DNA of 59,894 nucleotides from a virus (Duplodnaviria > Heunggongvirae > Uroviricota > Caudoviricetes): IMG/VR virus record IMGVR_UViG_2974697560_000001; one strand, written 5' to 3'. The position numbers and the translations under genes are program-made. The notes below the pieces were generated by a model. The model was not told the origin of the DNA. It made no database searches and saw only the letters and a list, made by a program, of their open reading frames with translations. Within the stretch, counting starts at the first letter, position 1; each line of letters begins with the position of its first letter. This document shows, piece by piece, positions 1 to 14,531 of the stretch.

Positions 1-548
1 GTCCGGGATATCTCGCAGGCTTAACAAGCATTTGGAGGCACATTCTAAGCCCTAGCAAACATTCTGCCCACGAATCCAAGGCAAATAAGGCTGTCAAGCA
101 CCGAAATATATGCTCCAAAAGTGTCCCAAAATGAGCAAAAACATGCTAATTTCAAGGGGAATGCTGCCATTTTGCCCGAAATCGTGCCAGAATCCAGCAA
201 TTTTAACAGTCATTCGTAAAGCAGCCCCAATCTAGCCCACATGCAGCCCCAAATCAGCCCATCTTCCTGGAAAATTAGGCAGTCATCGTAAATGGACCCA
301 CCATTCGAAGGCCAATGAGCCTGATAGACCTTAGATTCATAGATGAGGTGTCGATTCTCCCTATATACATGCCAGACTTGAGTCTGATGTGAGAAAAGCC
401 CGGCAGTTTGAAGAGGCTTTCGTAAATGGACTAGATAGATACACACGCATTATAGGGAAGGGTAGATAGTATATGTATATAGGGGACAAGGACACCTATC
501 ACTACCGGCCTTGAATCTCAGCATGTCTTGTCTCTCATGTATATAGCA

Positions 549-578
549 GAAAAGCCACCCCGAAGGGTGGCTATTTTT
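549..578. terminator. Intrinsic terminator (probably bidirectional)
   Basis: AAAAGCCACCC-CGAA-GGGTGGCTATTTTT hairpin with A/T tracts on both sides. Confidence 0.7.
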
Positions 579-767
579 GTACTCAAAAAAGTTTCTGAAA
601 ATGTGCTGACTCCGGGGATTTTGAGCCCTGACTTAAAGGGCCAAATCCTGGGAAAAATAAGGAGCCTTCGTAAAGGGGATTCAATTCGGACATCGGGGAC
701 AAATCGATGTGAATCTTGACAGACATGAAGTTAGTTAGGCTAGCTAAGATGTCCGCCCCGGACATTG

Positions 768-858
768 AAAGGTCCCTGGGGAGAGGCCGACCTTCCTCTA
801 ATTAAGCCCTCGCCAGATTGACTGATAGGGCCCCCAGGGACACACTTTGTACTTCTCT
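768..858 (-). ncRNA. Candidate three-way-junction small RNA
   Basis: Promoter TTGACA(885-890)-17-TAACAT(862-867) with no ORF downstream; 10-bp stem 772-781/832-841 enclosing two 5-bp hairpins. Confidence 0.45.
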
Positions 859-902
859 TCTATGTTAGCAAGGCACTGATACCTTGTCAACATCACTTAT
901 TG

Positions 903-1079
903 TTACACCGGCTCGTTGGGAATGATGACCATCGTGTTGTCAGCGTTCCGATAGGTGGCACAGTGAGGGCACAGAGGAGTCTCAACGTCATCGAGATTGA
1001 AGGTGCCAACTGCCTTACGTGCGAAGCATCCTTCACAGGTCTCGTCGTCATTGGGACCAAACGCCATGACCATTGCCAT
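903..1079 (-). CDS. Small zinc-finger-like protein (58 aa)
   Basis: MAMVMAFGPNDDETCEGC...CPHC...EPV; two CxxC pairs, own promoter and GAAAGGGG RBS; below ORF-track cutoff. Confidence 0.7.
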   Translation of the reverse strand: MAMVMAFGPNDDETCEGCFARKAVGTFNLDDVETPLCPHCATYRNADNTMVIIPNEPV

Positions 1080-1209
1080 GTCTTCCCCTTTCGTTAATAC
1101 GAGTCTAGCAGACTACAAGGACACCTGTCTACCCACCGGGCCGATTGTCCGCCCCCGCCAAAACCCCCCTAAACCCTTTCGGGCTAGGGGGACTGGCGTG
1201 CTTACTGCA

Positions 1210-2223
1210 TTACGCAGCGAGCGACAGGACCGCCTTACGGATGCGGTTCTTCTCAGCGTTGACCACCGGGTCGAAACCGCTGGCAGAGATGAACAGGTTG
1301 TCCACGTTGCCACCACGCGGCATCCGGTACCAGTCGATACGCTCCGTCAGAGCGTTCAGCGCACCCGCCATCGTGCCAGCGAGAGACTGCGTGGTCTTGG
1401 GACCGTCGCCCGTGTCGGTGAAGATGCCCATCAGGATGTCACGCTTCGACTCCCACTTGACCATGGAACCCTTCACGTCCTTTTCGGGACGCGGGTACAG
1501 CTCCTGAATCAGGGTGTCGAACTTGTCCTTCGTGCACGCGACCTCGAACAGAGAGTTCATCTCACGCTCGAACTCATCCGCGTACGCGAACGTGATGTTC
1601 AGAGCCTCACGCGCGGCAGCCATGCGACCCTCGATGGTCTGCGTGTGGCGCATCTTGAACTGCTGCTTCACACCGTTACGGAGTGCGAAGTTCAGCGTGT
1701 TCTGACACACGACACGGACCGGGGTGATGCTTGCCTGTACTGCGACAGACCCGTCATGCGACGTGTTGACCAGAAGATACAGATTGGTCACGTCGTCGTC
1801 ACCGACCTTGATTTCCCGACCGATGGACAGGGAACCGAAGACCACGCGACCGTCACGGATGGAACCAGCAGTCTCCCACGTGCCACCACCCGCGAGGATG
1901 CCGTCACCGAAGCCGAACAGCTCCTCATTCTGGACGACCTTGTAGCGCTCGCCCACAGTGGCCAGAACGTCATTCCGGCCGGTGAAGGGGTTGGTACGGA
2001 CGACCATGTGAGGCTCGGTCACGAAGTCATAGGTGTCAGACACCAGACCCATGACATCCTTGACGGATTCCAGACGGACGTTCCAGTCCGACAGGTGAGC
2101 CAGGGACAGCATCTCCGAAGTGGTCAGCTCTCCCTCGAAGACGGTTCCGAGCTGGTGCCACGCGGGCTCGCTGCGAGTGGCGAACGCGACCTGACCCTTG
2201 GAACCAATCTCAAGACCGTGCAT
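1210..2223 (-). CDS. DUF932 / TIGR03299 phage-plasmid protein
   Basis: PAWHQLG, YKVVQNEELF, ETAGSIRDGRVVF, LVNTSHDGS, TPVRVVCQNTL, MRHT motifs. Confidence 0.85.
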   Translation of the reverse strand: MHGLEIGSKGQVAFATRSEPAWHQLGTVFEGELTTSEMLSLAHLSDWNVRLESVKDVMGLVSDTYDFVTEPHMVVRTNPFTGRNDVLATVGERYKVVQNEELFGFGDGILAGGGTWETAGSIRDGRVVFGSLSIGREIKVGDDDVTNLYLLVNTSHDGSVAVQASITPVRVVCQNTLNFALRNGVKQQFKMRHTQTIEGRMAAAREALNITFAYADEFEREMNSLFEVACTKDKFDTLIQELYPRPEKDVKGSMVKWESKRDILMGIFTDTGDGPKTTQSLAGTMAGALNALTERIDWYRMPRGGNVDNLFISASGFDPVVNAEKNRIRKAVLSLAA

Positions 2224-2416
2224 GTTGTGCCTCCAATGGCAGAGTTTGGTTAGGGCCGGTTTCCCTGCCCTTCGATGTCTCTAGTCTAGCAGTAGGCAAG
2301 GGGGGATGTCTACCCACCTTACCGGGCTCATGTCCACAATGTCCGATTTGCCCGTTGGCGGACCCGGACACACGAAAGCCCCTCCGAAGAGGGGCAGTGT
2401 GCGAGCCTTAGCAGAC

Positions 2417-2857
2417 TCAGTACGCGGCGTCCAGGCAGGAACGCTCCCAGTTGGCCAGGTACATGCCGTCCAGCTTGGACACGTAGGCGTCCACGATGTC
2501 CTTCGAGTCCTTGAGACCCAGACCGGTCTTCTCGCGGAGCTGCTTGATGCACTGAATCTTCTTGTTGGAACCGACCTCACGGACGATGTCCTTGACCAAC
2601 TCCGCACCCTGCGCCTTGACACGCGCCTCGATGTCACGGAGACGGTTCAGCTCGTGGCTGGTGGGCTGCTCGGCGTCCTGCTTGCCGGAACGATAGCCAG
2701 CCTGGTAGCCATCGGCGTAGGACTTGTCCTCACGGTTCTGGAGTTCCCCAGCGTAGATGGCCTCGAACATGTTCACCAGGTCCATGGCCCGGTTGAGGCT
2801 CATGTGACCCTCGAAGTTGTGAAGGGAGGTGAGGAGCTGAGCGCGAAGGTCCGACAT
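2417..2857 (-). CDS. Protein with C-terminal ribosomal L7/L12 CTD-like domain
   Basis: GSNKKIQCIKQLREKTGLGLKDSKDIVDA aligns with the bL12 CTD motif KVAVIKAVRxxTGLGLKEAKDLVE. Confidence 0.8.
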   Translation of the reverse strand: MSDLRAQLLTSLHNFEGHMSLNRAMDLVNMFEAIYAGELQNREDKSYADGYQAGYRSGKQDAEQPTSHELNRLRDIEARVKAQGAELVKDIVREVGSNKKIQCIKQLREKTGLGLKDSKDIVDAYVSKLDGMYLANWERSCLDAAY

Positions 2858-2979
2858 GATGTTCTCCGTTTCTAGGGGCTCCTTGCCCCTTTCGATGTCT
2901 CTATCTTAGCAGTACCAAGGGCCCTGTGTCTACCGGTCATTTTTGTCCGGGCCCGACAGGGCCCCGAAGGGCCCTTCTG

Positions 2980-3420
2980 TCAGAACCTCACACCGACACC
3001 GGAACCGTCACAGGTCTCCACGATGCTCTTTGCGGTACGCAGGTCCAACGACGGGAAGTGAGCGCGCAGATGCTTGATGCACGCAATCTTGCGCTCCAGG
3101 TTGTAGTAGCTGAACTCACCGTTCGCCCAGATGGACGCACGCGCGACCAACTTGGTGTGGTCGTTCTCAGCGGTGAAGTTGCTCAGACGCTCACCGTGCG
3201 CCTTACCCTGTCCGTAGCCGTCCTCGAAAGCGGACTCCACACGCTTGTCCGCCTCCTTACGGGCCAGGTCCCAGGCGTTGTTCTCCACCTCGTTGACCCG
3301 CTCCAGGTGCGCGCTGTAGATGTAACCAGCCACCGTGAACGCCTTCTTCAAGCTCATCTTGACACCGTTGGCGTTGAAGATACGCATGATGCGGGCTTCG
3401 TCCAGGGTGAAGATGCTCAT
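2980..3420 (-). CDS. Second L7/L12 CTD-like protein
   Basis: RKIACIKHLRAHFPSLDLRTAKSIVE; same length and layout as its neighbour. Confidence 0.65.
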   Translation of the reverse strand: MSIFTLDEARIMRIFNANGVKMSLKKAFTVAGYIYSAHLERVNEVENNAWDLARKEADKRVESAFEDGYGQGKAHGERLSNFTAENDHTKLVARASIWANGEFSYYNLERKIACIKHLRAHFPSLDLRTAKSIVETCDGSGVGVRF

Positions 3421-3552
3421 GGTAGCCTCCAGTCTCAGGGAGCTTGTCTCCCTTTCGATGTCTTTAGTCTACATGACTAGTGAGGCAGATACAAGCCCTC
3501 TTCAAAGTGTCCGGGCCCGACACGGGCCCCAAAAGTCAAGGGCCCGGTAGGG

Positions 3553-3843
3553 TCAAGGGTTGGTGTGTCCCCTTTTCAGTAGTATCTGTTCGATGATGAA
3601 TTTCGAATCCATTACGCGATTGAATTCATCATCTGAGCGGCTTTCTGTCCTGCCTGCCCATGCATTGAGAATGGAGATGATGAACTGAAACATCACCGCC
3701 TGCACAGGCTCAGGATAGGTCGAAAGCAGATAGGCGAATGCATGAGGGTCGAATGACCGCTTATCCATTTCGTCAATCAGCTTATTGGCCAGACGCTCAT
3801 ACGACGTAGGCCGTGGCGTTACGAGTCGCGCACCCTCATACAT
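3553..3843 (-). CDS. Hypothetical protein (~96 aa)
   Basis: 3' part of track ORF 3553-4233 starting MYEGARLVTP. Confidence 0.6.
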   Translation of the reverse strand: MYEGARLVTPRPTSYERLANKLIDEMDKRSFDPHAFAYLLSTYPEPVQAVMFQFIISILNAWAGRTESRSDDEFNRVMDSKFIIEQILLKRGHTNP

Positions 3844-3877
3844 GTCAGGTGCGATGATGCTTGTTCGTTTGAAGGGA

Positions 3878-4045
3878 CTACGCGCCACCCTCTCCCCCAA
3901 AGTCTTCCGTTGTGCCGTATCCGTCTGAGACGCTGACAGACAGGCCCAGCACCTTTGCCATGAACTCTGCCGTAGCAGTAGCAAAGGGCCAGGCCGTGTC
4001 GTGAGCGTCATCATCGGGCGTGTCGATTTCGATGATGACTGCCAT
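3878..4045 (-). CDS. Hypothetical acidic protein (55 aa)
   Basis: MAVIIEIDTPDDDAHD...; AGGATAGGG RBS; follows the Lsr2-like gene. Confidence 0.6.
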   Translation of the reverse strand: MAVIIEIDTPDDDAHDTAWPFATATAEFMAKVLGLSVSVSDGYGTTEDFGGEGGA

Positions 4046-4054
4046 GTCCCTATC

Positions 4055-4573
4055 CTATCGTGCGTGAACCTCGACGTCCATACCAAGCACCACCGGGGAG
4101 CCACAGCCGCAGTGCGACAGGCTGTAACCGCACTTGCACACCTCACGCTCCGAGAGACGGATGCGCTTGCCACGGTAGTAAGCCGTGTACTCGGTACGGT
4201 TCGAACGGGTGGGCTCGGCGTGCGGACGGACATCCTTGCCGGTCACCTTGACGTGCACACCGGGCGCAGCGGGCTTGACCTCCGGGTTGTCCGCCTTGTA
4301 AGCGGCCAGCACCTCAGCCGACAGACGACCACGAGACGACACGGTGAGACCCTTGGAAGCGGCCCACGCACGCACCACCTTGGCATCGAACTGTCCGGCC
4401 TTGGGGGCAGCCTTGACGACCTTGCGAGGCGTGGCGTCGGTGTCAGCGAAAACCTTGCCCGACTTCTCAGCCTCAGCGATGGCCTCATACGCGGCAGCGC
4501 TCATCCGGCCACGGGATTCCTTGGCCAGGCCCAGAGAGACAGCGTACGCGCGACGGGTCATGTTGACGTTCAT
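4055..4573 (-). CDS. lsr2: Lsr2-like DNA-binding protein
   Basis: VVRAWAASKGLTVSSRGRLSAEVLAAY matches the Lsr2 C-terminal AT-hook domain; second RGR motif near the N-terminus; Cys-rich tail. Confidence 0.8.
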   Translation of the reverse strand: MNVNMTRRAYAVSLGLAKESRGRMSAAAYEAIAEAEKSGKVFADTDATPRKVVKAAPKAGQFDAKVVRAWAASKGLTVSSRGRLSAEVLAAYKADNPEVKPAAPGVHVKVTGKDVRPHAEPTRSNRTEYTAYYRGKRIRLSEREVCKCGYSLSHCGCGSPVVLGMDVEVHAR

Positions 4574-4762
4574 GGGGTTTCCTTCCCTCGGTGTGCACTC
4601 AGTCTATCGGATTGAAGGCGGAGAGGCAAGCCCCGGTGCAGAGGTTGGTTTCCCTCCCCTTCATGTCTCTAGTATAGAGGACGTAACAGGGTCCTGTCTA
4701 CAACCCTAAATGTCCGATTTGCCCGAAGTCCGGGCCCGACATGCCCCCGAAGGGGCAAGGGG

Positions 4763-5497
4763 CTAAGCCTTTCGGCGCTTAGAGACCTTGGACGCGAAAC
4801 GGATATCTGCCTTACCGAAGATGCAAAGGCCACACGTTACACACGCACCGCCCTTTTCGGTAATGAGAGGAATGCGCTTGGCATTCTCAGGGCAGATAGC
4901 CCCAGGCTTACCAGTTTCGGTAAGCATGAATTCCTTGCCCTGTTCGTGAGTCTCAGAGAGATAGGCAAGGCGAACCGAAGGGAATTCCTTCTTTGTCACC
5001 AGCGCCTTTTCCTCATTCTCACTGTCCACACTCAGATAAACAGAGAGGTTTTCGTGTCCCACGATGTGACGCACGTACTGGAATGACCGAGTGTAAATCC
5101 AGAATTGCACATCCTGGAAAATCTCAGCCATTCGAGCGATGTTCTGTGCGTATTCCGCAGAGAAGATATCGCCGTCAGCGTGCCAGCGAAACAGCTTAGG
5201 CGCGTCACGCTTTTCACAGTCGGCCCTGAAACTCTCAATCATTACTGCGAGATTGAGAAATTGGTCCTCGTTAGGGTCATTGAGAATGGCCCAGTTGTTG
5301 AGAACCAATTCACGATATGCAGGGTACTGCCTTTCGAGCTTACCTGCATAGCATACGGTCTCACAGACCTTTGTCGCACCGGGGCAGGAAAACGCCTTTC
5401 CACTCGGAATGGAGAATGCGTTTTTGATGACCGACTGTTCCCCTCGCTTGTTGGCAAGGTTGGCAGTCTTACGGTCATTCGTGCGCTTAAGCGGCAT
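4763..5497 (-). CDS. Gp88-like (radical-SAM-related Cys-motif) protein
   Basis: SCPGATKVCETVCYA and FRWHADGDIFS motifs; start moved to MPLKRT after a GGAGG RBS. Confidence 0.7.
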   Translation of the reverse strand: MPLKRTNDRKTANLANKRGEQSVIKNAFSIPSGKAFSCPGATKVCETVCYAGKLERQYPAYRELVLNNWAILNDPNEDQFLNLAVMIESFRADCEKRDAPKLFRWHADGDIFSAEYAQNIARMAEIFQDVQFWIYTRSFQYVRHIVGHENLSVYLSVDSENEEKALVTKKEFPSVRLAYLSETHEQGKEFMLTETGKPGAICPENAKRIPLITEKGGACVTCGLCIFGKADIRFASKVSKRRKA

Positions 5498-5792
5498 TGC
5501 GTTCCTCCGAGCTGTAGGGCAATTCAGTGTTACGGACAATGGTACCGAGCGAAACAGCGTTGATTGTCTTGTGTCCAAGAATCCACGCCATTACGACACG
5601 GTGCTGACCATTGTAGACCGTGCCATTCTGAAAGTTGATAGGCATCTGAATTCCGTCACGCTCGCATGACTCAATGAATTCATCGCTCATCTCAAAGAAA
5701 AGCTGAGTGAAAAGGTCCATCGTGGACTGACCTTCCTCGCGGTCTGCGAAGTCGGCACGGGCAACGATGGCTTCAACGCTCAGCTTCCTCAT
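5487..5792 (-). CDS. ParB/Srx-like nuclease-domain protein
   Basis: GIQMPI...VYNGQHRVVMAWILG; promoter -10 lies 7 nt before the ATG. Confidence 0.65.
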   Translation of the reverse strand: MRKLSVEAIVARADFADREEGQSTMDLFTQLFFEMSDEFIESCERDGIQMPINFQNGTVYNGQHRVVMAWILGHKTINAVSLGTIVRNTELPYSSEERNAA

Positions 5793-5901
5793 GTGTTCGA
5801 GTATAGCAAGACATGCGGACGTAAACAAGCCCCTAGACGAATGTCCGAAATGTCCGTTGTCCGCCCCGGACATGACTGAGGGCCCCCGAAGGGGCCCGGT
5901 G

Positions 5902-5964
5902 TCAGAGAAAGATGATTGCGAGAAAGAACACAATCACCACGTACCAGAGAAGGCGGTCAGACAT
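5902..5964 (-). CDS. Putative 20-aa membrane peptide
   Basis: MSDRLLWYVVIVFFLAIIFL; start overlaps the stop of the upstream peptide. Confidence 0.4.
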   Translation of the reverse strand: MSDRLLWYVVIVFFLAIIFL

Positions 5965-6034
5965 TCTCGCAAACCTCCCGGTACCAAGAGTAGTGCGTGT
6001 ACAGGTAGAAGTGAAGCCACTCAACGAAGTGCAT
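5957..6034 (-). CDS. Putative 25-aa aromatic-rich peptide
   Basis: MHFVEWLHFYLYTHYSWYREVCENV; AGGAG RBS. Confidence 0.45.
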   Translation of the reverse strand: MHFVEWLHFYLYTHYSWYREVCENV

Positions 6035-6036
6035 GT

Positions 6037-6360
6037 TTACTCCTGACAGAGAGGCAGGCCCAAGTCGTCCTGCATGTCCAGAAAGTCCGAGTTGAAGATT
6101 TCAAGGTACGTGCCACCCTTGATTTCTTCGATACCGAGCATGTATGCCACGATGAGCCTGTGACACCCCTCGTGAATCATGTTCTGCTCCTCATCATAGC
6201 AGATGGGAGAGACGATTCCAAGAGTCTGACATGAGTCCATGAACTCATCCGACAGCTCAGACAGCTTGCGCAAGAGAAGTTGTTCACGAGTGAGACCAAG
6301 AGCCTCAGCGTCGTAGAACAGAGCGTTGTCGATGAGTGCCTTCACACTGTACATCTTCAT
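6037..6360 (-). CDS. ParB/Srx-like nuclease-domain protein (paralog)
   Basis: GIVSPI...IHEGCHRLIVAYMLG; shares LSDEFxxSC with 5487-5792. Confidence 0.65.
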   Translation of the reverse strand: MKMYSVKALIDNALFYDAEALGLTREQLLLRKLSELSDEFMDSCQTLGIVSPICYDEEQNMIHEGCHRLIVAYMLGIEEIKGGTYLEIFNSDFLDMQDDLGLPLCQE

Positions 6361-6487
6361 TGCTTTCCCCCTTTCGCTAGTACGAGTCTACTGCACTACC
6401 GGGCCCGATGTCAACACATCTGAAAAATGTCCGGGGCCGCCAAAAGGGGCCCCGGAGGGCCCCCAAGGGGTCAAGCCGTTGTTGTGA

Positions 6488-6760
6488 TTAGTCCTCGCTG
6501 GTGTCCTTCTGGCTCACCAGCTTCGCGCGACCAAGCAGAGAGGCGTCAGCCTCCTTCCACTTACGAACCGGGCGACCGGTGCGCACGCGGGGGAAGCGGG
6601 CCAGGATGGCACGGGCGCGGGTCTCGTCGGCCTCCAGGATGTCGAACCGCTGGAAGGGAGCGACGTTGGACGTGGCACCGAACTCGATGTCCACCCCCTG
6701 GACAATCATGGCCACACGGAGGGCGAGAGCGTCACGGGCGGGAACGATACCGGCAATCAT
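6488..6760 (-). CDS. Hypothetical protein
   Basis: GGAG RBS, GC3-rich codons, cassette position. Confidence 0.65.
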   Translation of the reverse strand: MIAGIVPARDALALRVAMIVQGVDIEFGATSNVAPFQRFDILEADETRARAILARFPRVRTGRPVRKWKEADASLLGRAKLVSQKDTSED

Positions 6761-6889
6761 GTGAACTCCACTGCTAGAAGTAAGCTGGGGTATGAAGTTG
6801 TCAGAGACTTTGGCAGGAAGGGAAAAACCTCACGTTGCGAGGCCCTGTGGCCTGTCCCCTTGTGCTTAGCTAGAGTCTAGCAGGCCGAC

Positions 6890-7072
6890 CTACTCGCAGT
6901 CAACCAGGTACTCGGGCTCGTCGTCCTCGGAGACGGTCCAGATGTCCGCCAGCCATCCGCTACGGATGACACCAGCCGACACGAACTTGTGCGGCTCAGC
7001 AGCCTCACGGACAGCGTCCTCATACTCCTCTTCGGAGATGATGCTGTAGCCATCGGGAATCTCGAACGTCAT
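6890..7072 (-). CDS. Hypothetical acidic protein
   Basis: AGGAG RBS and own promoter. Confidence 0.7.
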   Translation of the reverse strand: MTFEIPDGYSIISEEEYEDAVREAAEPHKFVSAGVIRSGWLADIWTVSEDDEPEYLVDCE

Positions 7073-7205
7073 GATTGCTCCTCTCTTGGGGAGGTTTCCC
7101 TCCCTTTCGATGTTCTAAGTCTACATGAGAGATGGGACAGGCGCAACACCCAATATTCGTTAGACTGCCTAAGTTGTCCGGGTCCGACCCCGAAGGGCCA
7201 GACTG

Positions 7206-7364
7206 TTAGTCTCCCATGTCATCCAAGTGAGCATCGGGAACGGGCTCGAACTCAAGGAAGGTGTCTTCGAAAAGCACCATCCATGCGTAGCCCTCACGGT
7301 TGTCAGGATTGCACTTACCACGGTGCATGTCACCCGTGGCAGCACCACACTCAATGCAGGTCAC
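7206..7364 (-). CDS. Hypothetical Cys/His protein (52 aa)
   Basis: GTG start overlapping the upstream stop, AAGGAGG RBS; MTCIECGAATGDMHRGKC. Confidence 0.6.
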   Translation of the reverse strand: MTCIECGAATGDMHRGKCNPDNREGYAWMVLFEDTFLEFEPVPDAHLDDMGD

Positions 7365-7579
7365 TCGGCCTCCTTGATGTCCATGGCAACCAGCATGTCA
7401 ACCCTGCTGACAGTGAGGGCAATCTCTCGCCCGTCCTTGTCAGTGAAGTTGAAGGTACTTGCCTTGGCAGCGACCGCCTTGCGCCACGACTCGTTCGTCT
7501 CCTCCGCGTTGTGCGAAGTCAGAGTGAACAGAACCGGCTTGTCACGGTGGGCCAGGTGAACAGCAACGCGAGTAGCCAT
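7361..7579 (-). CDS. Hypothetical protein
   Basis: GAGG RBS and own promoter. Confidence 0.7.
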   Translation of the reverse strand: MATRVAVHLAHRDKPVLFTLTSHNAEETNESWRKAVAAKASTFNFTDKDGREIALTVSRVDMLVAMDIKEAE

Positions 7580-7700
7580 GATGCATCCTCTCTTCCGGGA
7601 GTTTTTCTCCCTTTCGATGCTCTAACTCTACACCATCAGACAGACAGAATCAAGACTGTCCGGGCCCGACACGGGCCCCGAAGGGCCCGGCGGGAAGGTG

Positions 7701-7985
7701 TTACTTCTTGGCCTTGGCGCGCTTGTTGCTGTGGTTGCCGTTCATGAGGGCCGTGAAGTCCAGCATGATGTTCTGCTTGAAGTTGGTCGCTCCGTGGAAC
7801 TTGCCGTCCTGGTCACGGATGACGATGCGGACCTCGGTGGAGTCGCTGCCCGGAGTGGTCTTCCAGGTCTCCAGACGGATGCTGTAGGTGGACTTGGAGC
7901 CCTTGACCTTGAAGCCCTCGGAGATGGTGACGCTGGAGACGATGTTGTGGTTGACGTCGGTCGCCTTGCGAAGGGTAACAGCCAC
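7701..7985 (-). CDS. Hypothetical basic protein
   Basis: AGGAG RBS and own promoter. Confidence 0.7.
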   Translation of the reverse strand: MAVTLRKATDVNHNIVSSVTISEGFKVKGSKSTYSIRLETWKTTPGSDSTEVRIVIRDQDGKFHGATNFKQNIMLDFTALMNGNHSNKRAKAKK

Positions 7986-8127
7986 GGTGACTCCTAAGTC
8001 TCTGCTAGGGGTTTCTTTCCCCCTTGCTGATAGCTAAAGTCTACACGACTCAGCCGACAAGTACAACCCATGAAATTATGTCCGAAATGTCTGTCGGAGC
8101 CCGACAGGGGCCCGGAGGCCCCTCCCG

Positions 8128-8454
8128 TCAGACCTCGAACCCGACGACCGAGCCGTCGTCGTTCTTGAAGTACACAGCCTCACTCTCAGCCTGAAGAGTG
8201 CGCATGTGCGACAGGTCTTCGAGCGTGCGGGAAATGCTTCCCAGCGTGTCCCACGCCTCACGACGGGTCCAACCGAGGAAACCATCAGTCGTGCCGGGTG
8301 CGTTGCTTCCGTCCGGCATACGCAGGGTGTATGCCACACCCATGTTACGGCTGCCTTCCTGGAGCTTGACCGTGAGCGAAACGCCCTGGTTCTCCCAAGC
8401 ACGGATGTAGCGGTTGACCATGCCGACGAGCTGAGTCTTCGAGATGCGGTCCAT
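8128..8454 (-). CDS. Hypothetical protein
   Basis: GGAAGGA RBS and own promoter. Confidence 0.7.
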   Translation of the reverse strand: MDRISKTQLVGMVNRYIRAWENQGVSLTVKLQEGSRNMGVAYTLRMPDGSNAPGTTDGFLGWTRREAWDTLGSISRTLEDLSHMRTLQAESEAVYFKNDDGSVVGFEV

Positions 8455-8507
8455 GGTGTTTCCTTCCCTCGGTGTAACTGAAGTCTAGCAGGTTTAGCAG
8501 GTGGTGT

Positions 8508-8645
8508 CTACTTCTCCTGCTGCTTTTCCAATTGCTCCTTGTAGCTGGTCAGGATGCGACGGAGCCAGGCAGGAACGATGCCCTGTTCCTTGGCAGCCGC
8601 AATCTCAGCCTCAGTGAATGGACCAGTAGGGATTTCGAAAGTCAT
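8508..8645 (-). CDS. Hypothetical protein (45 aa)
   Basis: MTFEIPTGPFTEAEIAAAKEQG...; RBS and own promoter. Confidence 0.6.
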   Translation of the reverse strand: MTFEIPTGPFTEAEIAAAKEQGIVPAWLRRILTSYKEQLEKQQEK

Positions 8646-8756
8646 GGCTTCCCCTCTCGGATTTCTTAGTCATAGTCTACACGACCAGATTTTTAGTCGC
8701 AAGCCCTATTTTCAAGATTTTTAGTCGGGGGCGGACGCCCCGAAGGGCTAGCCACC

Positions 8757-9068
8757 TTACTCCCAAGGCTGGTAGTCAGACCAGTCGGAACCCTCGTGAT
8801 TCTGGATTTCGATGGTCACCGTGTCACCCAAACGGTGATTCACGCTGTACAGGGAGCGGCTGGAGCCCTGGTAACGCCTTTGGGCCTTTGCCCACTTGAC
8901 CAGCTTCTCAGCCTGCTTGCGGGAGCGGCAGGGCCATGCCTCGATGCACTCTCCGTAGTTGTACCACCATCCGCCCTCTTCCGAGCCACCACAGGCCCGG
9001 TCTACGAAGTGAATGTTCACCCAGTGCTTGTTCCGACGACGCTGACCCATACGAAGACCCTTGGCCAT
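8757..9068 (-). CDS. Hypothetical protein
   Basis: AAGGAGG RBS; DRACGGSEEGGWWY motif. Confidence 0.7.
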   Translation of the reverse strand: MAKGLRMGQRRRNKHWVNIHFVDRACGGSEEGGWWYNYGECIEAWPCRSRKQAEKLVKWAKAQRRYQGSSRSLYSVNHRLGDTVTIEIQNHEGSDWSDYQPWE

Positions 9069-9175
9069 TTCCGCCTCCTTGTTGATGACCTAAGTCTAAC
9101 AGAAGCCTAGGACAGATTCAATATGCTTGCCAGGATGTACAGTGATTGTCGGACCCGGACAAAAAATTCGCCTAC

Positions 9176-9236
9176 AAATTCACCCCTCTTTTCTAAGGGA
9201 ATCTGGGAAGAAATCCTTGAAAAGAGGGGTGAATTT
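9176..9236. repeat. Perfect 18-bp inverted repeat
   Basis: AAATTCACCCCTCTTTTC (9176-9193) / GAAAAGAGGGGTGAATTT (9219-9236). Confidence 0.9.
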
Positions 9237-9487
9237 TTTCTGCGAATGTTTTTCGAAGGTCAGATTGCGACTTTTTCGTCTTTTCCTGCCTCACAAAGGC
9301 AGTATTTCGAATGTGTCGCCTCGATTGCGACAAAGCCGCTTTCCTGATACCTCGAAAGAAGGTTGGCCAGAAGGGACGAGTTGAAAACCGGGGTTTTGGA
9401 TTTCAGCCCGTCCCTTTCCAGCAAAAGGGACATACTGTGAAATCGGACTTTTGAAACAGCCTTTTTCCGCATTATGCCCCCTTTAGG

Positions 9488-9634
9488 TCAGCCCAGTTCG
9501 GACATGTGCGCGTAGGCGTCCTCGGTACCGAAGTCAACGGTACGGTCAGCGTCCCGCACGGTGGAGACAGGCAGGGTCATGGTGGTGAAGACGCCAGCGT
9601 CCACAGCCTGCTCAAGAAGGTCACGAAGGTCCAT
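9488..9634 (-). CDS. Hypothetical protein (48 aa)
   Basis: MDLRDLLEQAVDAGVF...; GGAAGGAAG RBS and own promoter. Confidence 0.6.
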   Translation of the reverse strand: MDLRDLLEQAVDAGVFTTMTLPVSTVRDADRTVDFGTEDAYAHMSELG

Positions 9635-9784
9635 GGTGTGTACTTCCTTCCGTCTTGGTGATAGCTCTAGTCTAGCCTACGTACATGGGGGATGCAAGCC
9701 CTAGATGTTCCGGGAATTTTCAGCGCCTATCGTACACGCGCGGGGGAAATGTGGGGTATGTCCGTAAGGCCCCTTAATAGAGCC

Positions 9785-9882
9785 TATGCCCTATATGTAC
9801 CATGTGCCCATATATGTACTGCTATGGCATGGTATGTACCCATATGCCCTATGTGTACCAGTATGGGTAGGTATGTACCCAA
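9785..9882. repeat. Degenerate TATG(T/C)(A/C)CC tandem repeats
   Basis: TATGCCCTATATGTACC, ATATGCCCTATGTGTACC, GGTATGTACCC twice. Confidence 0.6.
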
Positions 9883-10016
9883 TGTCCGTTTTGACCTAAA
9901 TGTCTGTCGGCCCCGGACGTTACCAAGTCTTTACCTAAGAAGTTCTCGGATTGGCGGTTTAGGCGGGGGCGGACGGGTAGTATGTAGGCATAGCCACTAC
10001 ACACCAGGGAGACACG

Positions 10017-10478
10017 ATGAACGCCACCGCCACCCACACCAACACCCACACTGACGGCCGGACCTGCACCTACGCTACGGAAAAGGCCACTAACGCCCGT
10101 GTGCGTAGGCAGGTGCTCGCTACGGTGCTGTACCTGGCATCCCTCACGGGGGACAGTGACGGGGCCACGTGGGCTAACTGTGTGGGGTGTGGGGAGCGTG
10201 CCCACGTGGGCGGTACCCCTAGGGCTATGGACACGTTCAACCTTGGCCACGTGCACAGTGATGCGGAAGGGGGCATGTGGTGCGTGTGCAACTTCCTCCC
10301 CCTGTGCAGGCAGTGCAACGTGGACATGGGCAAAGAGCACATGATGGACGTTCTCACTCCGATGTATGACAATCGGGACATGTGGGACGGTAAGCTCATG
10401 CGTGACCCTGGCAATGCCGAGAGTGCCCCGATGGTGAACCGTGGCCGTGCCCGTTGGGCGGCCCCCACGGGCCGCTAA
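10017..10478 (+). CDS. HNH endonuclease-like protein
   Basis: CVGCGE...LGHVHS...GG...NFLPLCRQCN. Confidence 0.7.
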   Translation: MNATATHTNTHTDGRTCTYATEKATNARVRRQVLATVLYLASLTGDSDGATWANCVGCGERAHVGGTPRAMDTFNLGHVHSDAEGGMWCVCNFLPLCRQCNVDMGKEHMMDVLTPMYDNRDMWDGKLMRDPGNAESAPMVNRGRARWAAPTGR

Positions 10479-10489
10479 GCGGCTTAGAG

Positions 10490-10525
10490 AGTAGCCCCTA
10501 GGACGTAGTGGCCTAGGGGCTCTTT
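10490..10525 (+). terminator. Intrinsic terminator
   Basis: AGCCCCTAGG-9nt-CCTAGGGGCT-CTTTC. Confidence 0.7.
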
Positions 10526-10716
10526 CATGCCCTCAGACGGGCCCTCAGCCCTTTTGAAAACGGCTTTCAACTAGGGTGGAACCTTCCCCGGAACCTTCCC
10601 GCGAGAGAATGTCAAGGGATATGGGCGCACTATCTGGATTGTTACAAAGGTATGCGAAGCATGTATCGTACAACATCAAAAATTACTAACATTTCGCACA
10701 CCTTTTAATGTAACAA

Positions 10717-10959: not shown

Positions 10960-11665
10960 CTTGTCTATCATTCCCAAATGGTCTGAGAGCGACAGGGAAT
11001 TCGGGAACAATGAGGTCACGAACGGCCTGCGCATACTGCTGAATTTCTAGCTGTGCCTTGTGCTCTAGCCTTTCATTGAGAAAGTGCATTACTGCTGCAA
11101 GGCTGGTAGTCCAACGCCATCTTACATACATACCATATGCGGGGAGGAATAGTCTTGCTTGTTCCGGCGCGAGTCCACTGTCCAATGCCTGATTGTATAG
11201 TGTCTCACCTTGTGCCAGGAATTCCTTGAGCATATCGGTGTATTGCTGAGAAGTGATAGGGTCTGCGTTTTCTCCGCTGCCCTGCTTCTTGTTTTCTGGT
11301 GCCATACGCCACTCTGTTGGAATGTGGTATACGGGGTCTTCTGTTATATAGCGTCTTGATGATTCGTTCCAGCCTATTTGGTCATCAAGATGGGTAGAAG
11401 CCACTGTATATTTCCACCATTGACGTGCAACGAATAGAGGTGCATAAACCTCAAACGTCATCGTGGCATGTCTGAATGGGGAATACTCGTTATTCCTGAC
11501 AAGGAAGTTGATAAGACGCTCATCCCTGTCTCCAAACTCTGCACTTTCCTTGGCATAAGATACTCTAGCTGCATTTACAATGGAAAGGTCACTTCCCATA
11601 TGGTCTACTAGACGTACATATCCTTCGTCAAGGACCCTGATAATATTCTGTTCCCCACCGGGCAT
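10949..11665 (-). CDS. thyX: Flavin-dependent thymidylate synthase
   Basis: GYVRLVDHMGSDLSIVNAARVSY, HxSPF-like YSPFRH, APLFVARQW, WNESSRRY, HKAQLEI. Confidence 0.93.
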   Translation of the reverse strand: MPGGEQNIIRVLDEGYVRLVDHMGSDLSIVNAARVSYAKESAEFGDRDERLINFLVRNNEYSPFRHATMTFEVYAPLFVARQWWKYTVASTHLDDQIGWNESSRRYITEDPVYHIPTEWRMAPENKKQGSGENADPITSQQYTDMLKEFLAQGETLYNQALDSGLAPEQARLFLPAYGMYVRWRWTTSLAAVMHFLNERLEHKAQLEIQQYAQAVRDLIVPEFPVALRPFGNDRQDEQ

Positions 11666-12125
11666 TTAGTCTCCTAATTGATTCGTAGTGCTTGAACTCC
11701 TTGTCCAAGCTGTCTTCTGCAAGCTTTCCGTGCCGGGCGTCTCTTTCTCCCTGGAAAAGGATTCCAATCCTGGCCTGCTCACTCTTGATAATTAGATATG
11801 GCTGTAGAAGAGTAAGGAAATCTCTAGCCATTTTAGAAGTCATCGCCCATTGCCATGATGGCTGAGCCTTTGGCCTACTCTTTTTCTCTAGAAGAGTCCC
11901 ACCAAATTTCATATGAAGTCGAACGAGAACTTCCCTGTTCGTACTGGACACGCTAACTCTCAATTGAAAGCTGTCTTTTCGCCCGTTGTATCCCTTGACC
12001 TTGTTGATAGAAACGCATCCTTCTCCATCAAACAATCCGGCGTAATAGGCTAGACTTAGTCTTTCTTCGAGTTCTAGCTTTTCTTCAACCATGTCTTGGT
12101 AATAGGGCTCTCTTTTGATTGCCAT
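11628..12125 (-). CDS. LAGLIDADG homing endonuclease
   Basis: LAYYAGLFDGEGCVSI motif; start MAIKRE after a leaderless-type promoter. Confidence 0.88.
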   Translation of the reverse strand: MAIKREPYYQDMVEEKLELEERLSLAYYAGLFDGEGCVSINKVKGYNGRKDSFQLRVSVSSTNREVLVRLHMKFGGTLLEKKSRPKAQPSWQWAMTSKMARDFLTLLQPYLIIKSEQARIGILFQGERDARHGKLAEDSLDKEFKHYESIRRLNARWGTEYYQGP

Positions 12126-12145
12126 GGTTCTATGGTACCACAACA

Positions 12146-12174
12146 AAGGCCAGAGCACAAATGCTCTGGCCTAA
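12146..12174 (-). terminator. Terminator overlapping the LAGLIDADG promoter
   Basis: GGCCAGAGCA-TTTG-TGCTCTGGCC-TTTG. Confidence 0.65.
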
Positions 12175-12337: not shown

Positions 12338-12485
12338 TTGCTACCTGCAATTCCTGTAGGGCGTATATTTCCTTGGCTACTGCCTTTGCACGATTCTCGT
12401 TCTTGCCACGAACTCGCAGATACTCTTCTCTTAGAGCGTCAAGGCGTCGTTGGCATTCCCGTGCGTTCTTAGGTATGGCACTCAT
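12312..12485 (-). CDS. Hypothetical protein (57 aa)
   Basis: MSAIPKNARECQRRLDALREEY...; ATG overlaps the upstream stop. Confidence 0.55.
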   Translation of the reverse strand: MSAIPKNARECQRRLDALREEYLRVRGKNENRAKAVAKEIYALQELQVANGWGKKGS

Positions 12486-12802
12486 ACGTTATTCCTGTCA
12501 AGTATGCCGTGTATGTAATCGGCATCAATGTCGTCGTAGTTTGATAGCATTCTCAACTCTGAGACTGCCTCTTTGTACCGGCGATTTTCTGACAGATAGT
12601 TGTCAGCATCATTAGCCCACCGGTAGGCATCTTTGCGAAGTGCTAGGAACTTCTCTCGGGGAATCTCTTCATCGGGCAGGATATCAAATTCAACCCATAC
12701 TGAATACTCCTCTTCTGTCATTCCTAGAAACTCGTGGAGTGACATTTCTGTGTCACTGTCATGCCACTTGTCCACGAGGTCTTCTAGTTGTCCTTTGTTC
12801 AT
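12482..12802 (-). CDS. Hypothetical protein
   Basis: GAGGA RBS; WHDSDTEMSLHEFLGMTEEEY motif. Confidence 0.7.
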   Translation of the reverse strand: MNKGQLEDLVDKWHDSDTEMSLHEFLGMTEEEYSVWVEFDILPDEEIPREKFLALRKDAYRWANDADNYLSENRRYKEAVSELRMLSNYDDIDADYIHGILDRNNV

Positions 12803-13146
12803 GTCCTCAGTTTGTCACATGTCCTGGGACATTGTCAAGACGTGACACTGCCTTGTTCACCGTATTCACTGGGACATCTGTCCCCTTGATGTCACAAATC
12901 TGCTTGTGCAATTCTTTCCTGTCCGTGACACCCTTGTCCCATAGCTCTCTGACCAGGGCGGACACTGACTTGTCCTTGTTTGTCACCGATGTCTCTGTCA
13001 CCTTTTTTGTCCCTGGGACATTGTCCGTGACAGGAATGTCCGGTGACGTGACAGAAAATGTCTTGTCCTCTGTCTTTGTCACCTTGTCCTTTTTGTCACT
13101 TGTCTTGTCCTTTGTCTTCTTTCTGTCCAGAGGCTGTCCAGTGACA
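12741..13146. repeat. Dense TGTC/GACA tetramer array
   Basis: 40 TGTC or GACA occurrences counted by hand in ~410 bp (about 3 expected at random). Confidence 0.85.
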
Positions 13147-13664
13147 TTTGTGACGGCTTCATTCAGACGGAAGAATACCACATCCTTGAAGCCACGGAAA
13201 GTCTTGCCTGGGAAGATAAGCCAGCTAATCTTACCAAACACTGGCATACGCTTCGGAACAAGACCCATTGAGCGCATCTCGCTTCGGTGAATGAAGCGTA
13301 GATAAAGCTCGAAAAGGATACCGGCAATAACTGGTGGTGCTCCAAAAAGAACCATTCCAGGGATGCCATAGGATAGCAAGATGGCGTGCTCTACGTTGAG
13401 GTAGACAGACGCACCGACGAACAGATATGTTGCTAGTTTTGTTGCAAGGCCAGAATCTTCTGTTCTGGCATACTTTGAGGCAAGGTCAGCTACAAACAGA
13501 GCTGCGCCATCAAAAGCCGCGCTTACACCGATAGCAAGAATCTGGGGCACGCCATAGAACGTAATTGCGAGCGAATAAAGACTCCACCAAGATAGTGCGA
13601 GGCTTACAACAAGCACAATCGCAAAGCCGAGCCAACCAACCTTGAATTTCTTAAGATATTTCAT
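12807..13664 (-). CDS. DUF2637/Spd-like membrane protein with C-terminal HTH-like region
   Basis: Four hydrophobic segments (LALSWWSLYSLA, AAFDGAAL, ASVYLNVEHA), a T/D/K/V-rich linker and a helical C-terminus; start MKYLKK after GAGGAGAGGG. Confidence 0.7.
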   Translation of the reverse strand: MKYLKKFKVGWLGFAIVLVVSLALSWWSLYSLAITFYGVPQILAIGVSAAFDGAALFVADLASKYARTEDSGLATKLATYLFVGASVYLNVEHAILLSYGIPGMVLFGAPPVIAGILFELYLRFIHRSEMRSMGLVPKRMPVFGKISWLIFPGKTFRGFKDVVFFRLNEAVTNVTGQPLDRKKTKDKTSDKKDKVTKTEDKTFSVTSPDIPVTDNVPGTKKVTETSVTNKDKSVSALVRELWDKGVTDRKELHKQICDIKGTDVPVNTVNKAVSRLDNVPGHVTN

Positions 13665-14403
13665 TAGCCCTCTCCTCTGTGATAGGCTTGTCGTCCTTCC
13701 ATCCGACGATGATTGTATTTGGTCTATAATCAGTTTCGTGCAGATGCTTCTTTGAACTATTGCATGACTTACATAGAATTTGGAAGTTTCTGAAAGAGTG
13801 CTCTCCACCCAAATAGAGGGGAACAATATGGTCTAGAGTTAGAATGCTGTCTGACGTGCATTCAGGATTGAGACAGACATTGCCGTAGAAATCCTTAACG
13901 ATTGTCATGTAGTCTCTAGGAAGAGGTTCAACCGTTCCTGCACGTTTTGCAGCGAAGTACCTTGCATTGTTTCCTCTGACAATATCCCTATTGTTCTCAA
14001 CCCATCTACGAGTGTTCTCTTTTCTTCTTTCAGGATTGCTTTGATGCCATCGTCTGTTCTTTTCTCTAGCGGCCTCTGGATTATTCTTATGCCATTCGTG
14101 GTTCTTTTGCTTAACCTTATCCGGATTAGCTAGTCTCCAACGGCGGGTGGCTTCCCTATTTGGCTCAGGATTGACTGCCCTCCTGGCTCTCGCTTGGGCA
14201 TTCTTCTTTTCTCGGTTACGCTCGGTCCATTCGCGCTCATATTGTCTGAACTTATCTGGATTAGCTTCACGAGCCTTCTTGCGTTTAATCTTGGCGCATT
14301 CGAGGCAGTGCCCCTTCAATTTTATCGTGCCATCTGCCCTCTTTCCGTCCTTTCCAAATTCGGACAGCCCTTTAGACAGACCGCAGCTATTGCATGTCTT
14401 CAT
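13651..14403 (-). CDS. HNH homing endonuclease
   Basis: N-terminal CxxC, repeated NP(E/D)K helical units, LTLDHIVPLYLGGEHSFRNFQILCKSCNSSK. Confidence 0.9.
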   Translation of the reverse strand: MKTCNSCGLSKGLSEFGKDGKRADGTIKLKGHCLECAKIKRKKAREANPDKFRQYEREWTERNREKKNAQARARRAVNPEPNREATRRWRLANPDKVKQKNHEWHKNNPEAAREKNRRWHQSNPERRKENTRRWVENNRDIVRGNNARYFAAKRAGTVEPLPRDYMTIVKDFYGNVCLNPECTSDSILTLDHIVPLYLGGEHSFRNFQILCKSCNSSKKHLHETDYRPNTIIVGWKDDKPITEERANEIS

Positions 14404-14531
14404 GTAGCTACAGTAGCATAAAATTCATTATTGTGCCACCAACTCAGTGCCAGCGCGACAATGAGAACAACTCCGAATGATATTGAACCCCGCCAGTCAA
14501 GAATACGCTTGACGTTTGGCGTTTTCATCAT
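14400..14531 (-). pseudogene. Orphaned 5' fragment of the DUF2637-like gene (43-codon ORF)
   Basis: FGVVLIVALALSWW matches FAIVLVVSLALSWW at the N-terminus of 12807-13664. Confidence 0.7.

Follow-up and report, generated by a model that had tools for sequence, protein, structure and literature searches.

A dense array of short GACA words inside the gene of a DUF2637 membrane protein of a Streptomyces phage, a candidate docking site for the protein's own tail

The stretch of viral DNA analysed here (IMG/VR record IMGVR_UViG_2974697560_000001; 59,894 nucleotides, hereafter the window) carries on its minus strand the gene of a 285-aa DUF2637 membrane protein (12807-13664), recognized from the list of open reading frames (ORFs), Pfam and related phages as a homolog of gp29 of the phage EGole. 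The 3' part of this gene holds an array of about 40 copies of a 5-6 bp word with a GACA core, which spans 431 bp (12716-13146, minus strand) and was delimited by word counts, a word scan and synonymous tests. From the comparison of sequences across phages, satellites, plasmids and chromosomes we consider it probable that this array is a docking pad acting in cis, to which the membrane-anchored tail of the gene's own product would bind, thereby tethering the DNA to the membrane.

An initial annotation, made from the letters of the window alone, had reported 40 TGTC/GACA tetramers in about 410 bp. Our recount gives the same 40 in the 410 bp that start at 12741, the highest number in any 410-bp segment of the window (mean 4.6, standard deviation (sd) 3.4). 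The tetramer had been taken as the unit, and its GACA core stands, but the unit is longer: the base 5' of GACA is G at 20, T at 16, A at 5 and C at none of the 41 sites of the array, which is therefore described as K-GACA (GTGACA 13 times, GGACA 20 times). The words lie on both strands in a ratio of about 3:1 (31 on the minus strand, which is the coding one, and 10 on the plus strand), the gaps between them are irregular (5-13 bp, with a few of 20-30 bp) and without periodicity, and GACA occurs in each of the three codon phases. The words are most densely packed in the segment encoding a linker (12969-13139, minus strand; aa 176-232, with many K, D, T and V residues), as judged by the counts and the structural model described below. 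From there the words run through the segment encoding the tail domain (12840-12968, minus strand; aa 233-275), and five further words lie in the first 22 codons (12737-12802, minus strand; 66 nt, z 2.4) of the downstream gene in the ORF list (12482-12802, minus strand; 106 aa, phrog_12828). Thus, the earlier description of words in both orientations, in several codon contexts and across a gene boundary is accurate. The half of the gene that encodes the membrane domain has one tetramer in its first 507 nt (z -1).

An unbiased scan of every 5-mer and 6-mer ranked the array first in the window, with a log10 p of -17 for GGACA and -19 for GTGACA. The runner-up clusters reached about -10 (5-mers) and -8 (6-mers), which puts the array ahead by 7-11 orders of magnitude. 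The second-best 5-mer cluster is formed by nine copies of ATATA near the left genome end (101-550), and the next-best 6-mer cluster by CCACGTGG-type palindromes near the inner end of the terminal repeat (10165-10325), where ACGTGG/CCACGT occurs six times in about 160 bp.

The synonymous tests covered codons 170-285 of the gene, the 4-nt spacer and the 22 codons of the next gene. When codons were redrawn from the codon usage of the genome with both proteins fixed, we obtained a mean of 13.5 tetramers (sd 2.6) and a maximum of 24 in 20,000 draws, against the 40 observed. Permutation of the segment's own synonymous codons yielded a mean of 25.9 and a maximum of 37, and shuffling of the codon order within the segment a mean of 14.1. 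Asp is encoded by GAC in 16 of 17 cases (59% in the genome) and Thr by ACA in 13 of 18 (24% in the genome); Val is encoded by GTC and GTG only (39% of genome Val codons combined) and never by GTT or GTA (60%). Amino-acid content, which the initial annotation had itself set up beforehand as the alternative to its claim of selection on the DNA rather than the protein, is excluded as the cause of the array by this resampling, and the claim is further upheld by the contrast with the word-poor membrane half of the gene.

The Pfam domain DUF2637 (PF10935) covers aa 13-161 of the protein with 27.4 bits against a curated cut-off of 22.8, and homologs carry the same precomputed domain. An AlphaFold2 (AF2) model built on 46 homologs contains four long membrane helices (aa 9-35, 41-66, 73-96 and 100-132; the coding segment for aa 9-132 is 13269-13640, minus strand) and two more helices within aa 145-175. 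These are followed by a disordered linker of about 45 residues (aa 185-227, predicted local distance difference test (pLDDT) score below 50) and a confident three-helix domain (aa 234-274, pLDDT about 90), which forms three helices again when the tail is modelled in isolation. The architecture proposed for this gene, with four membrane helices, a low-complexity linker and a helical end, is thus recovered in the model. Both the N-terminus and the segment after helix 4 are rich in K and R, which according to the positive-inside rule would place both ends of the protein, and hence the tail, in the cytoplasm. A Foldseek search with the whole-protein model returned unrelated membrane proteins only, and a profile search of the tail against PDB sequences returned nothing meaningful.

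Over the aligned stretch the window is 98% identical to EGole (MK494112), a Streptomyces phage of the genus Samistivirus (Boydwoodruffvirinae, actinophage cluster BE), and we used EGole to stand in for the part of the genome beyond 59.9 kb. Phages of cluster BE are lytic siphoviruses whose genomes of about 133 kb have a GC content of about 49% and carry terminal repeats of about 11 kb (PMC5764925). Positions 66-10666 of the window align with the right-end repeat copy of EGole, indicating that the window starts at the left genome end and that the left direct terminal repeat ends at about 10.67 kb. The array starts about 2 kb past this inner end of the repeat, toward which the gene is oriented.

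In eleven relatives from four genera (Samistivirus, Coruscantvirus, Tomasvirus and Karimacvirus) the final 350-390 nt of the gene contain 24-34 tetramers; their linker proteins can barely be aligned, yet the array is kept. Absence of the array from homologs had been named as a finding that would speak against a function, and all Boydwoodruffvirinae relatives that we examined retain it. In Karimacvirus every site is TGACA, mostly within CGTGACA, and GGACA/TGTCC is absent; the in-gene array of Bordeaux (MN369757; Karimacvirus) accordingly comprises 30 copies without GGACA. Karimacvirus genomes have 6-7 more sites in a non-coding spacer of about 75 bp after the stop codon.

The relatives possess a second array about 2.3-2.7 kb downstream of an annotated FtsK-like translocase gene. 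In EGole it lies at about 79,860-80,130, with 22 tetramers in 300 nt of the structured part of a PhoD-type phosphatase gene, and Jay2Jay has 25 tetramers in 300 nt of the same gene. The orthologous segment of Tomas has 4 tetramers (z -0.1), and its protein is 79% identical overall to that of EGole. This pair is a natural control, in which a near-identical protein is encoded with the word or without it. Bordeaux lacks the phosphatase gene; in the syntenic region (78,802-78,945), a stretch of 145 bp that contains no reading frame carries 19 TGTCA/TGACA words and gives way to an AT-rich promoter region. The fully non-coding state of the second array in Bordeaux indicates that the words are a DNA element in their own right. 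Judging from EGole, the phage of the window presumably has a second array as well, beyond the end of the window.

These observations bear on the possibility that the words are a functionless by-product of the evolution of a low-complexity linker, generated when short coding units slip or duplicate. The linker is both disordered and repetitive, the positions of words are no better conserved than their neighbors, one array-bearing chromosomal copy of the gene has a clear internal duplication, and a Gly-Ser linker of the phage Keanu has given rise to a single-frame word array. Nevertheless, the words of the arrays occur in three frames, on both strands, in the coding sequence of a structured tail, in the next gene and in non-coding DNA; the second array lies in an enzyme gene and is absent from the Tomas ortholog; and permuting the segment's own codons falls short of the observed count. 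Since non-coding arrays exist, we regard this explanation as largely refuted and give it only a very small residual probability.

A tblastn search found the gene in two published Streptomyces satellite phages, Mulchroom and MiniFlayer. The Mulchroom copy has 24 CGACA words, mostly in the form ACGACA (17-24 copies), and the MiniFlayer copy has TGCGA 20-24 times, in two codon phases and on both strands. MiniFlayer is the sole element examined without a GACA core, and it also lacks the otherwise conserved T and R of the third helix of the tail. In co-infecting pairs of helper and satellite the words do not overlap: C precedes GACA at 0 of 42 sites in MulchMansion and at 24 of 27 in Mulchroom, while TGACA occurs 30 times in MindFlayer and not at all in MiniFlayer, which has TGCGA 20 times instead. 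As helper and satellite share a cell, neither a host protein nor a shared helper protein is likely to read both words, which suggests that the reader should be encoded by each element. The DUF2637 gene is the only gene common to all array-bearing elements. Altogether, the comparative data (association of the array with the 3' part of this gene in most cases, and covariation of non-overlapping words with the element) favor a cognate pair of protein and site. Inspection by eye of about ten lineages revealed no simple code that would relate residues of the third helix to the base preceding GACA.

Sense words outnumber antisense ones in the window (31:10), Bordeaux (22:8), Mulchroom (24:4) and MiniFlayer (19:5), as would be expected if the sense GACA words were recognized in the mRNA by a protein that binds RNA or by a ribonuclease. 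However, one copy in four is antisense, perfect palindromes are common (e.g. GACATGTC, TGTCATGACA and TGAGCGCGCTCA), and the second array of EGole is balanced at about 11:11 in a hand count, so that a function at the level of RNA appears highly improbable to us.

Streptomyces chromosomal homologs at 42-48% identity all reside inside integrated Mulchroom-like satellites, with arrays of AGGACA, AAGACA, TGGACA or A-R-GACA. These integrated satellites (L014-L017) encode an integrase, Lsr2-like, HATPase-like and DUF2637 proteins, a terminase, an SPP1-type portal, a scaffold and a capsid protein. They are low in GC (52-58%) and have tRNA-gene-like sequences downstream of the DUF2637 gene, and in one of them (L015) a small additional cluster of its own word lies in non-coding DNA at 9341-9427. 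A 93-kb Streptomyces plasmid with 70% GC encodes a 414-aa DUF2637 protein with a CGCTCA array: the 3' part of the gene (about 640 nt) has 21 GCGCTCA-type heptamers, including the palindrome TGAGCGCGCTCA, compared with one in the rest of the 9-kb locus.

Of 151 Streptomyces-order genomes sampled, a Pfam-family search detected DUF2637 in 142, frequently as multiple copies, and 36 chromosomal loci from the 151 genomes were scanned for arrays. Copies with strong arrays 3' of the domain use GGACCA (19 copies), CGACAA (13 copies) or TGACCG, the last of these running past the stop codon. Among the array-bearing elements examined, two have the array 5' of the DUF2637 domain and all others have it in the 3' part of the gene. 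Where the scan was applied to entire elements or to loci with uniform base composition, the array led all other word clusters by many orders of magnitude. Two of the scanned chromosomal DUF2637 genes adjoin MobA/VirD2 relaxase genes, and on plasmid NZ_CP109008 a 28-30% identical DUF2637 gene is located beside genes for a GntR protein and a weak FtsK-like protein. The latter neighborhood gives indirect support to the label 'Spd-like' that the phage gene had received.

In the mechanism that we propose, the words are most likely read by the product of the gene itself, a membrane protein of four helices whose predicted ends are cytoplasmic and whose helix-turn-helix-like (HTH-like) tail is attached by a disordered linker. 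The tail may bind the words as a monomer, and binding of a single tail to a single 5-6 bp word would be weak. Many membrane-bound copies acting on 40 clustered words would add up to strong combined binding and might pin that segment of the phage chromosome to the membrane, with the smaller array near 80 kb of the relatives as a second attachment point. The amino-acid sequence of the linker is almost free to vary, and the DNA encoding it can therefore carry sites; because the sites are inside the gene of their reader, site and reader are inherited together. Insertion into the membrane during expression of the gene (co-translational insertion) could favor loading of the protein onto its own DNA copy. 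The tether might serve to position DNA for replication or packaging at the membrane, or to hand it over to a DNA pump between hyphal compartments. By analogy, the family context (FtsK-like and relaxase neighbors, and SpdB2-type proteins) points to handover of DNA to a membrane translocation machinery, and the BE phages are annotated with an FtsK-like translocase, although Pfam gives only AAA_10 at E 0.0055, below the cut-off. The lack of replication genes in the satellites would also fit a role in origin function or replisome recruitment.

Generalizing from these elements, we judge the chances to be about even that genes with the DUF2637-linker-tail arrangement are one-gene tethers of DNA to the membrane, an undescribed class that is widespread among actinomycete phages, satellites, plasmids and integrative elements; in this class the linker coding sequence would also be the docking array, and word and tail would co-evolve so that elements sharing a cell keep separate anchors.

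Several observations weigh against a tether formed by the gene's own tail. The nearest solved folds of the tail are small HTH domains (those of the Mos1 and Sleeping Beauty transposases, Fur/Zur, PadR, the N-domain of small terminases and FtsK gamma), but all are below significance (Foldseek E > 2; VIA Z 4.4-5.5), and the Pfam family HTH_Tnp_Tc3_2 matches 5 of 24 family tails only weakly (E at least 0.019); the designation 'HTH-like' is reasonable but not established. The synonymous test gave z values of 8-12 in six relatives and 5.6-18 in satellites, but the words for elements other than the window were picked after inspection, which inflates these values. We sought purifying selection at the level of single sites and did not find it: identity is 0.876 at word positions and 0.883 at their neighbors within the array. 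An in-gene array is lacking in Muntaha, in the plasmid copy beside GntR and the weak FtsK-like gene (L024), and in most of the 36 chromosomal copies. Finally, the 3:1 strand bias, which extends to non-coding copies, is not predicted by orientation-free binding. Between 14 and 28 of the window's 40 sites are found at an aligned position in other species, and selection, if real, acts on how densely the words are packed rather than on individual ones. Such turnover of sites at a maintained density fits a multivalent pad rather than a set of precise operators.

The sites could also belong to a replication origin with its origin-binding protein, in which iteron-like sites lie in the gene of the initiator and the membrane protein recruits the phage replisome. 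Satellites would then keep their own initiator and origin and borrow the polymerase, helicase and primase of the helper, a scheme that can overlap with membrane tethering. The satellites have no recognizable replication genes, and the genes for the membrane protein and for an HNH enzyme are the only non-structural ones that the two have in common (PMC10690885). The integrated satellites carry the gene too, non-overlapping helper and satellite words would suit separate replicons, and the second array of Bordeaux is followed by the AT-rich promoter region. On the other hand, the words are 5-6 bp long and irregularly spaced, in contrast to phased iterons of 18-22 bp, and no 40-bp stretch of at least 70% A+T was found within 600 bp of the window array. 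There are moreover two arrays per helper genome, the membrane protein has no helicase-loading or ATPase domain, and members of the family occur in relaxase and FtsK-type transfer loci. We therefore consider an origin unlikely. Well-known cases of binding sites inside the gene of the protein that reads them are the lambda origin in gene O and oriL of SPP1 in gene 38, which resemble the present array in that site and reader are inherited together; they differ from it in their longer, phased iterons, their AT-rich unwinding region and their soluble initiators.

Alternatively, the array may be read by another phage protein, either the FtsK-like translocase, for which it would be a loading site of the clt/TRS type, or the small terminase, for which it would be a packaging signal near the terminal repeat. 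The position of the second array downstream of the annotated translocase gene would suit the former, the distance of about 2 kb between array and repeat boundary and the orientation of the gene toward the repeat in helpers and satellites alike would suit the latter, the strand bias suggests polarity, and satellites encode their own terminases. However, satellites have arrays of different words without a translocase gene, arrays are also found at chromosomal loci that are linked to a relaxase gene and lack a terminase in the surrounding 20 kb, and the translocase annotation is not confirmed by Pfam. Neither version explains why the array is usually located in the DUF2637 gene. A reader of this kind seems decidedly improbable.

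Among described systems, the clt locus of the Streptomyces conjugative plasmids pSVH1, pJV1 and pIJ101, in which 8-bp TRS repeats are read by TraB, is similar in that a short, element-specific word is clustered on a Streptomyces mobile element and is recognized by a protein that is encoded by the element, located at the membrane and active on double-stranded DNA (PMC4447253). It differs in that the words of the array are 5-6 bp long, number about 40, occur in both orientations and lie inside the DUF2637 coding sequence; a membrane protein with four helices and no ATPase is the candidate reader, and there is no adjacent traB. The direct 8-bp repeats at or in the 3' end of a TraB/FtsK-type gene that characterize clt are not seen here, and the FtsK-like gene of the relatives is more than 60 kb away. 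SpdB2 of pSVH1, a membrane protein of the four-helix type, binds double-stranded DNA and is needed for plasmid spread in the mycelium, and Thoma et al. proposed that actinophage homologs of SpdB2 help to spread phage DNA (PMC4447253). The four membrane helices are present in our AF2 model, but the gene is not part of an spd operon with traB, its neighbors being the HNH gene, a Dps-like gene and small phage genes. Furthermore, DNA binding by SpdB2 is reported to be non-specific, without a described cognate site array (PMC4447253).

The phi29 protein p16.7, an integral membrane protein made early in infection, attaches replicating phage DNA to the membrane (PMC4974454). Its sequence is unrelated, it has a single membrane helix, and it acts via the terminal protein and single-stranded DNA and not through a specific site array. 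In Bacillus, specific chromosomal sites are tethered to the membrane or the pole by Noc (NBS sites) and RacA (ram sites). In the Corynebacterium prophage CGP3 the adaptor AlpA, bound to repeated sites (alpS), positions phage DNA at the membrane, the presumed place of replication (PMC4446434). AlpA, Noc and RacA differ from the proposed reader in being soluble adaptors that depend on a filament, an amphipathic helix or a partner protein, and their sites are outside the adaptor gene. As regards partition systems of the ParABS type, no ParA-type ATPase and no ParB/ParR-type adaptor was found among the ORFs at 11.5-15 kb of the window or in the annotated neighborhoods of the relatives.

In the library searched, two papers name DUF2637, and judged by titles and abstracts neither deals with what the protein does. 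In the passages of the satellite-phage paper that were consulted the gene is called a 'predicted membrane protein', with no description of in-gene repeats or of homology to a helper gene (PMC10690885). A tethering role would give a function to this uncharacterized family, and the array would be a clear case of a DNA signal overwriting a protein-coding sequence, with the VT, DK and DR dipeptides of the linker as by-products of the DNA word. It would also provide a handle on how satellites without replication genes keep their DNA distinct from that of the helper. Phage biology and plasmid spread might be linked in this way, as the machineries that move double-stranded DNA in the Streptomyces mycelium may be related, and orthogonal pairs of word and tail could possibly be used as simple membrane-tethering tags.

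The early region of the window, within the terminal repeat, has seven 15-bp TGTC-N7-GACA palindromes (mostly TGTCCGGGCCCGACA; 750-9147), each beside a GC hairpin; two of them are preceded by ATGTCCGAAATGTC. The initial annotation had tied the array to these palindromes through the shared tetramer. Bordeaux retains its array with no such palindrome in the first 20 kb of its genome and without GGACA, and as a shared tetramer is weak evidence, we do not adopt this link. Of the one-gene membrane tether proposed earlier, the gene architecture, the selection on the DNA and the conservation of the array are supported, and the connection to the early region is not.

Two types of known host sites were compared with the words. 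The Streptomyces DnaA box has the consensus TTGTCCACA, which starts with TTGTCC; TTGTCC occurs many times in the array, but inspection by eye revealed one near-complete box (12767-12775), and Karimacvirus lacks GGACA/TGTCC. GACAC is a motif of the WhiA type, of which about four were seen by eye in the array. Neither candidate was retained.

Adjacent to the membrane-protein gene, Pfam and the comparison with relatives identify an HNH endonuclease gene (13651-14403, minus strand; 250 aa, Pfam HNH and HNH_5) inserted at its 5' end, an insertion shared only with EGole among the relatives examined. Upstream of it, the ORF list and the relatives reveal 43 codons left over from the N-terminus that the membrane protein originally had (14400-14531, minus strand). 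The first helix encoded by the current gene is a rebuilt one; relatives other than EGole have a longer N-terminus, and their match to the window protein starts at residue 35. A further ORF of 176 aa with a LAGLIDADG-like motif (11628-12158, minus strand), situated between the ThyX gene and small genes, looks like a second homing-endonuclease insertion. In the same neighborhood a LAGLIDADG endonuclease is annotated in Braelyn, and EGole has small genes there.

Word clusters with other layouts were seen near some DUF2637 genes. Loci L039 (1115-1538) and L037 encode a 719-aa DUF2637 protein with a long Ala/Glu-rich C-terminal part, probably a coiled coil; here GTTTCG occurs ten times, ahead of the gene and in its 5' part rather than its 3' part, and two runs are spaced at 21-22 bp, a more iteron-like layout. 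A chromosomal island with a DUF2637 gene and a relaxase gene (L064) has CTCAC 16 times and AGTGAG 6 times at 7551-8000, in an unassigned 326-aa gene just upstream of an IstB-like ATPase gene. The phage Keanu (MT723933; L066) has a weak DUF2637-like gene without an in-gene array, and two genes downstream of it a Gly-Ser-rich gene carries TCCGGGTC five times in a single frame (4300-4620). This sequence is the reverse complement of GACCCGGA, which we take to be the TRS word of pSVH1, and the cluster may be either a by-product of coding or a clt-like site.

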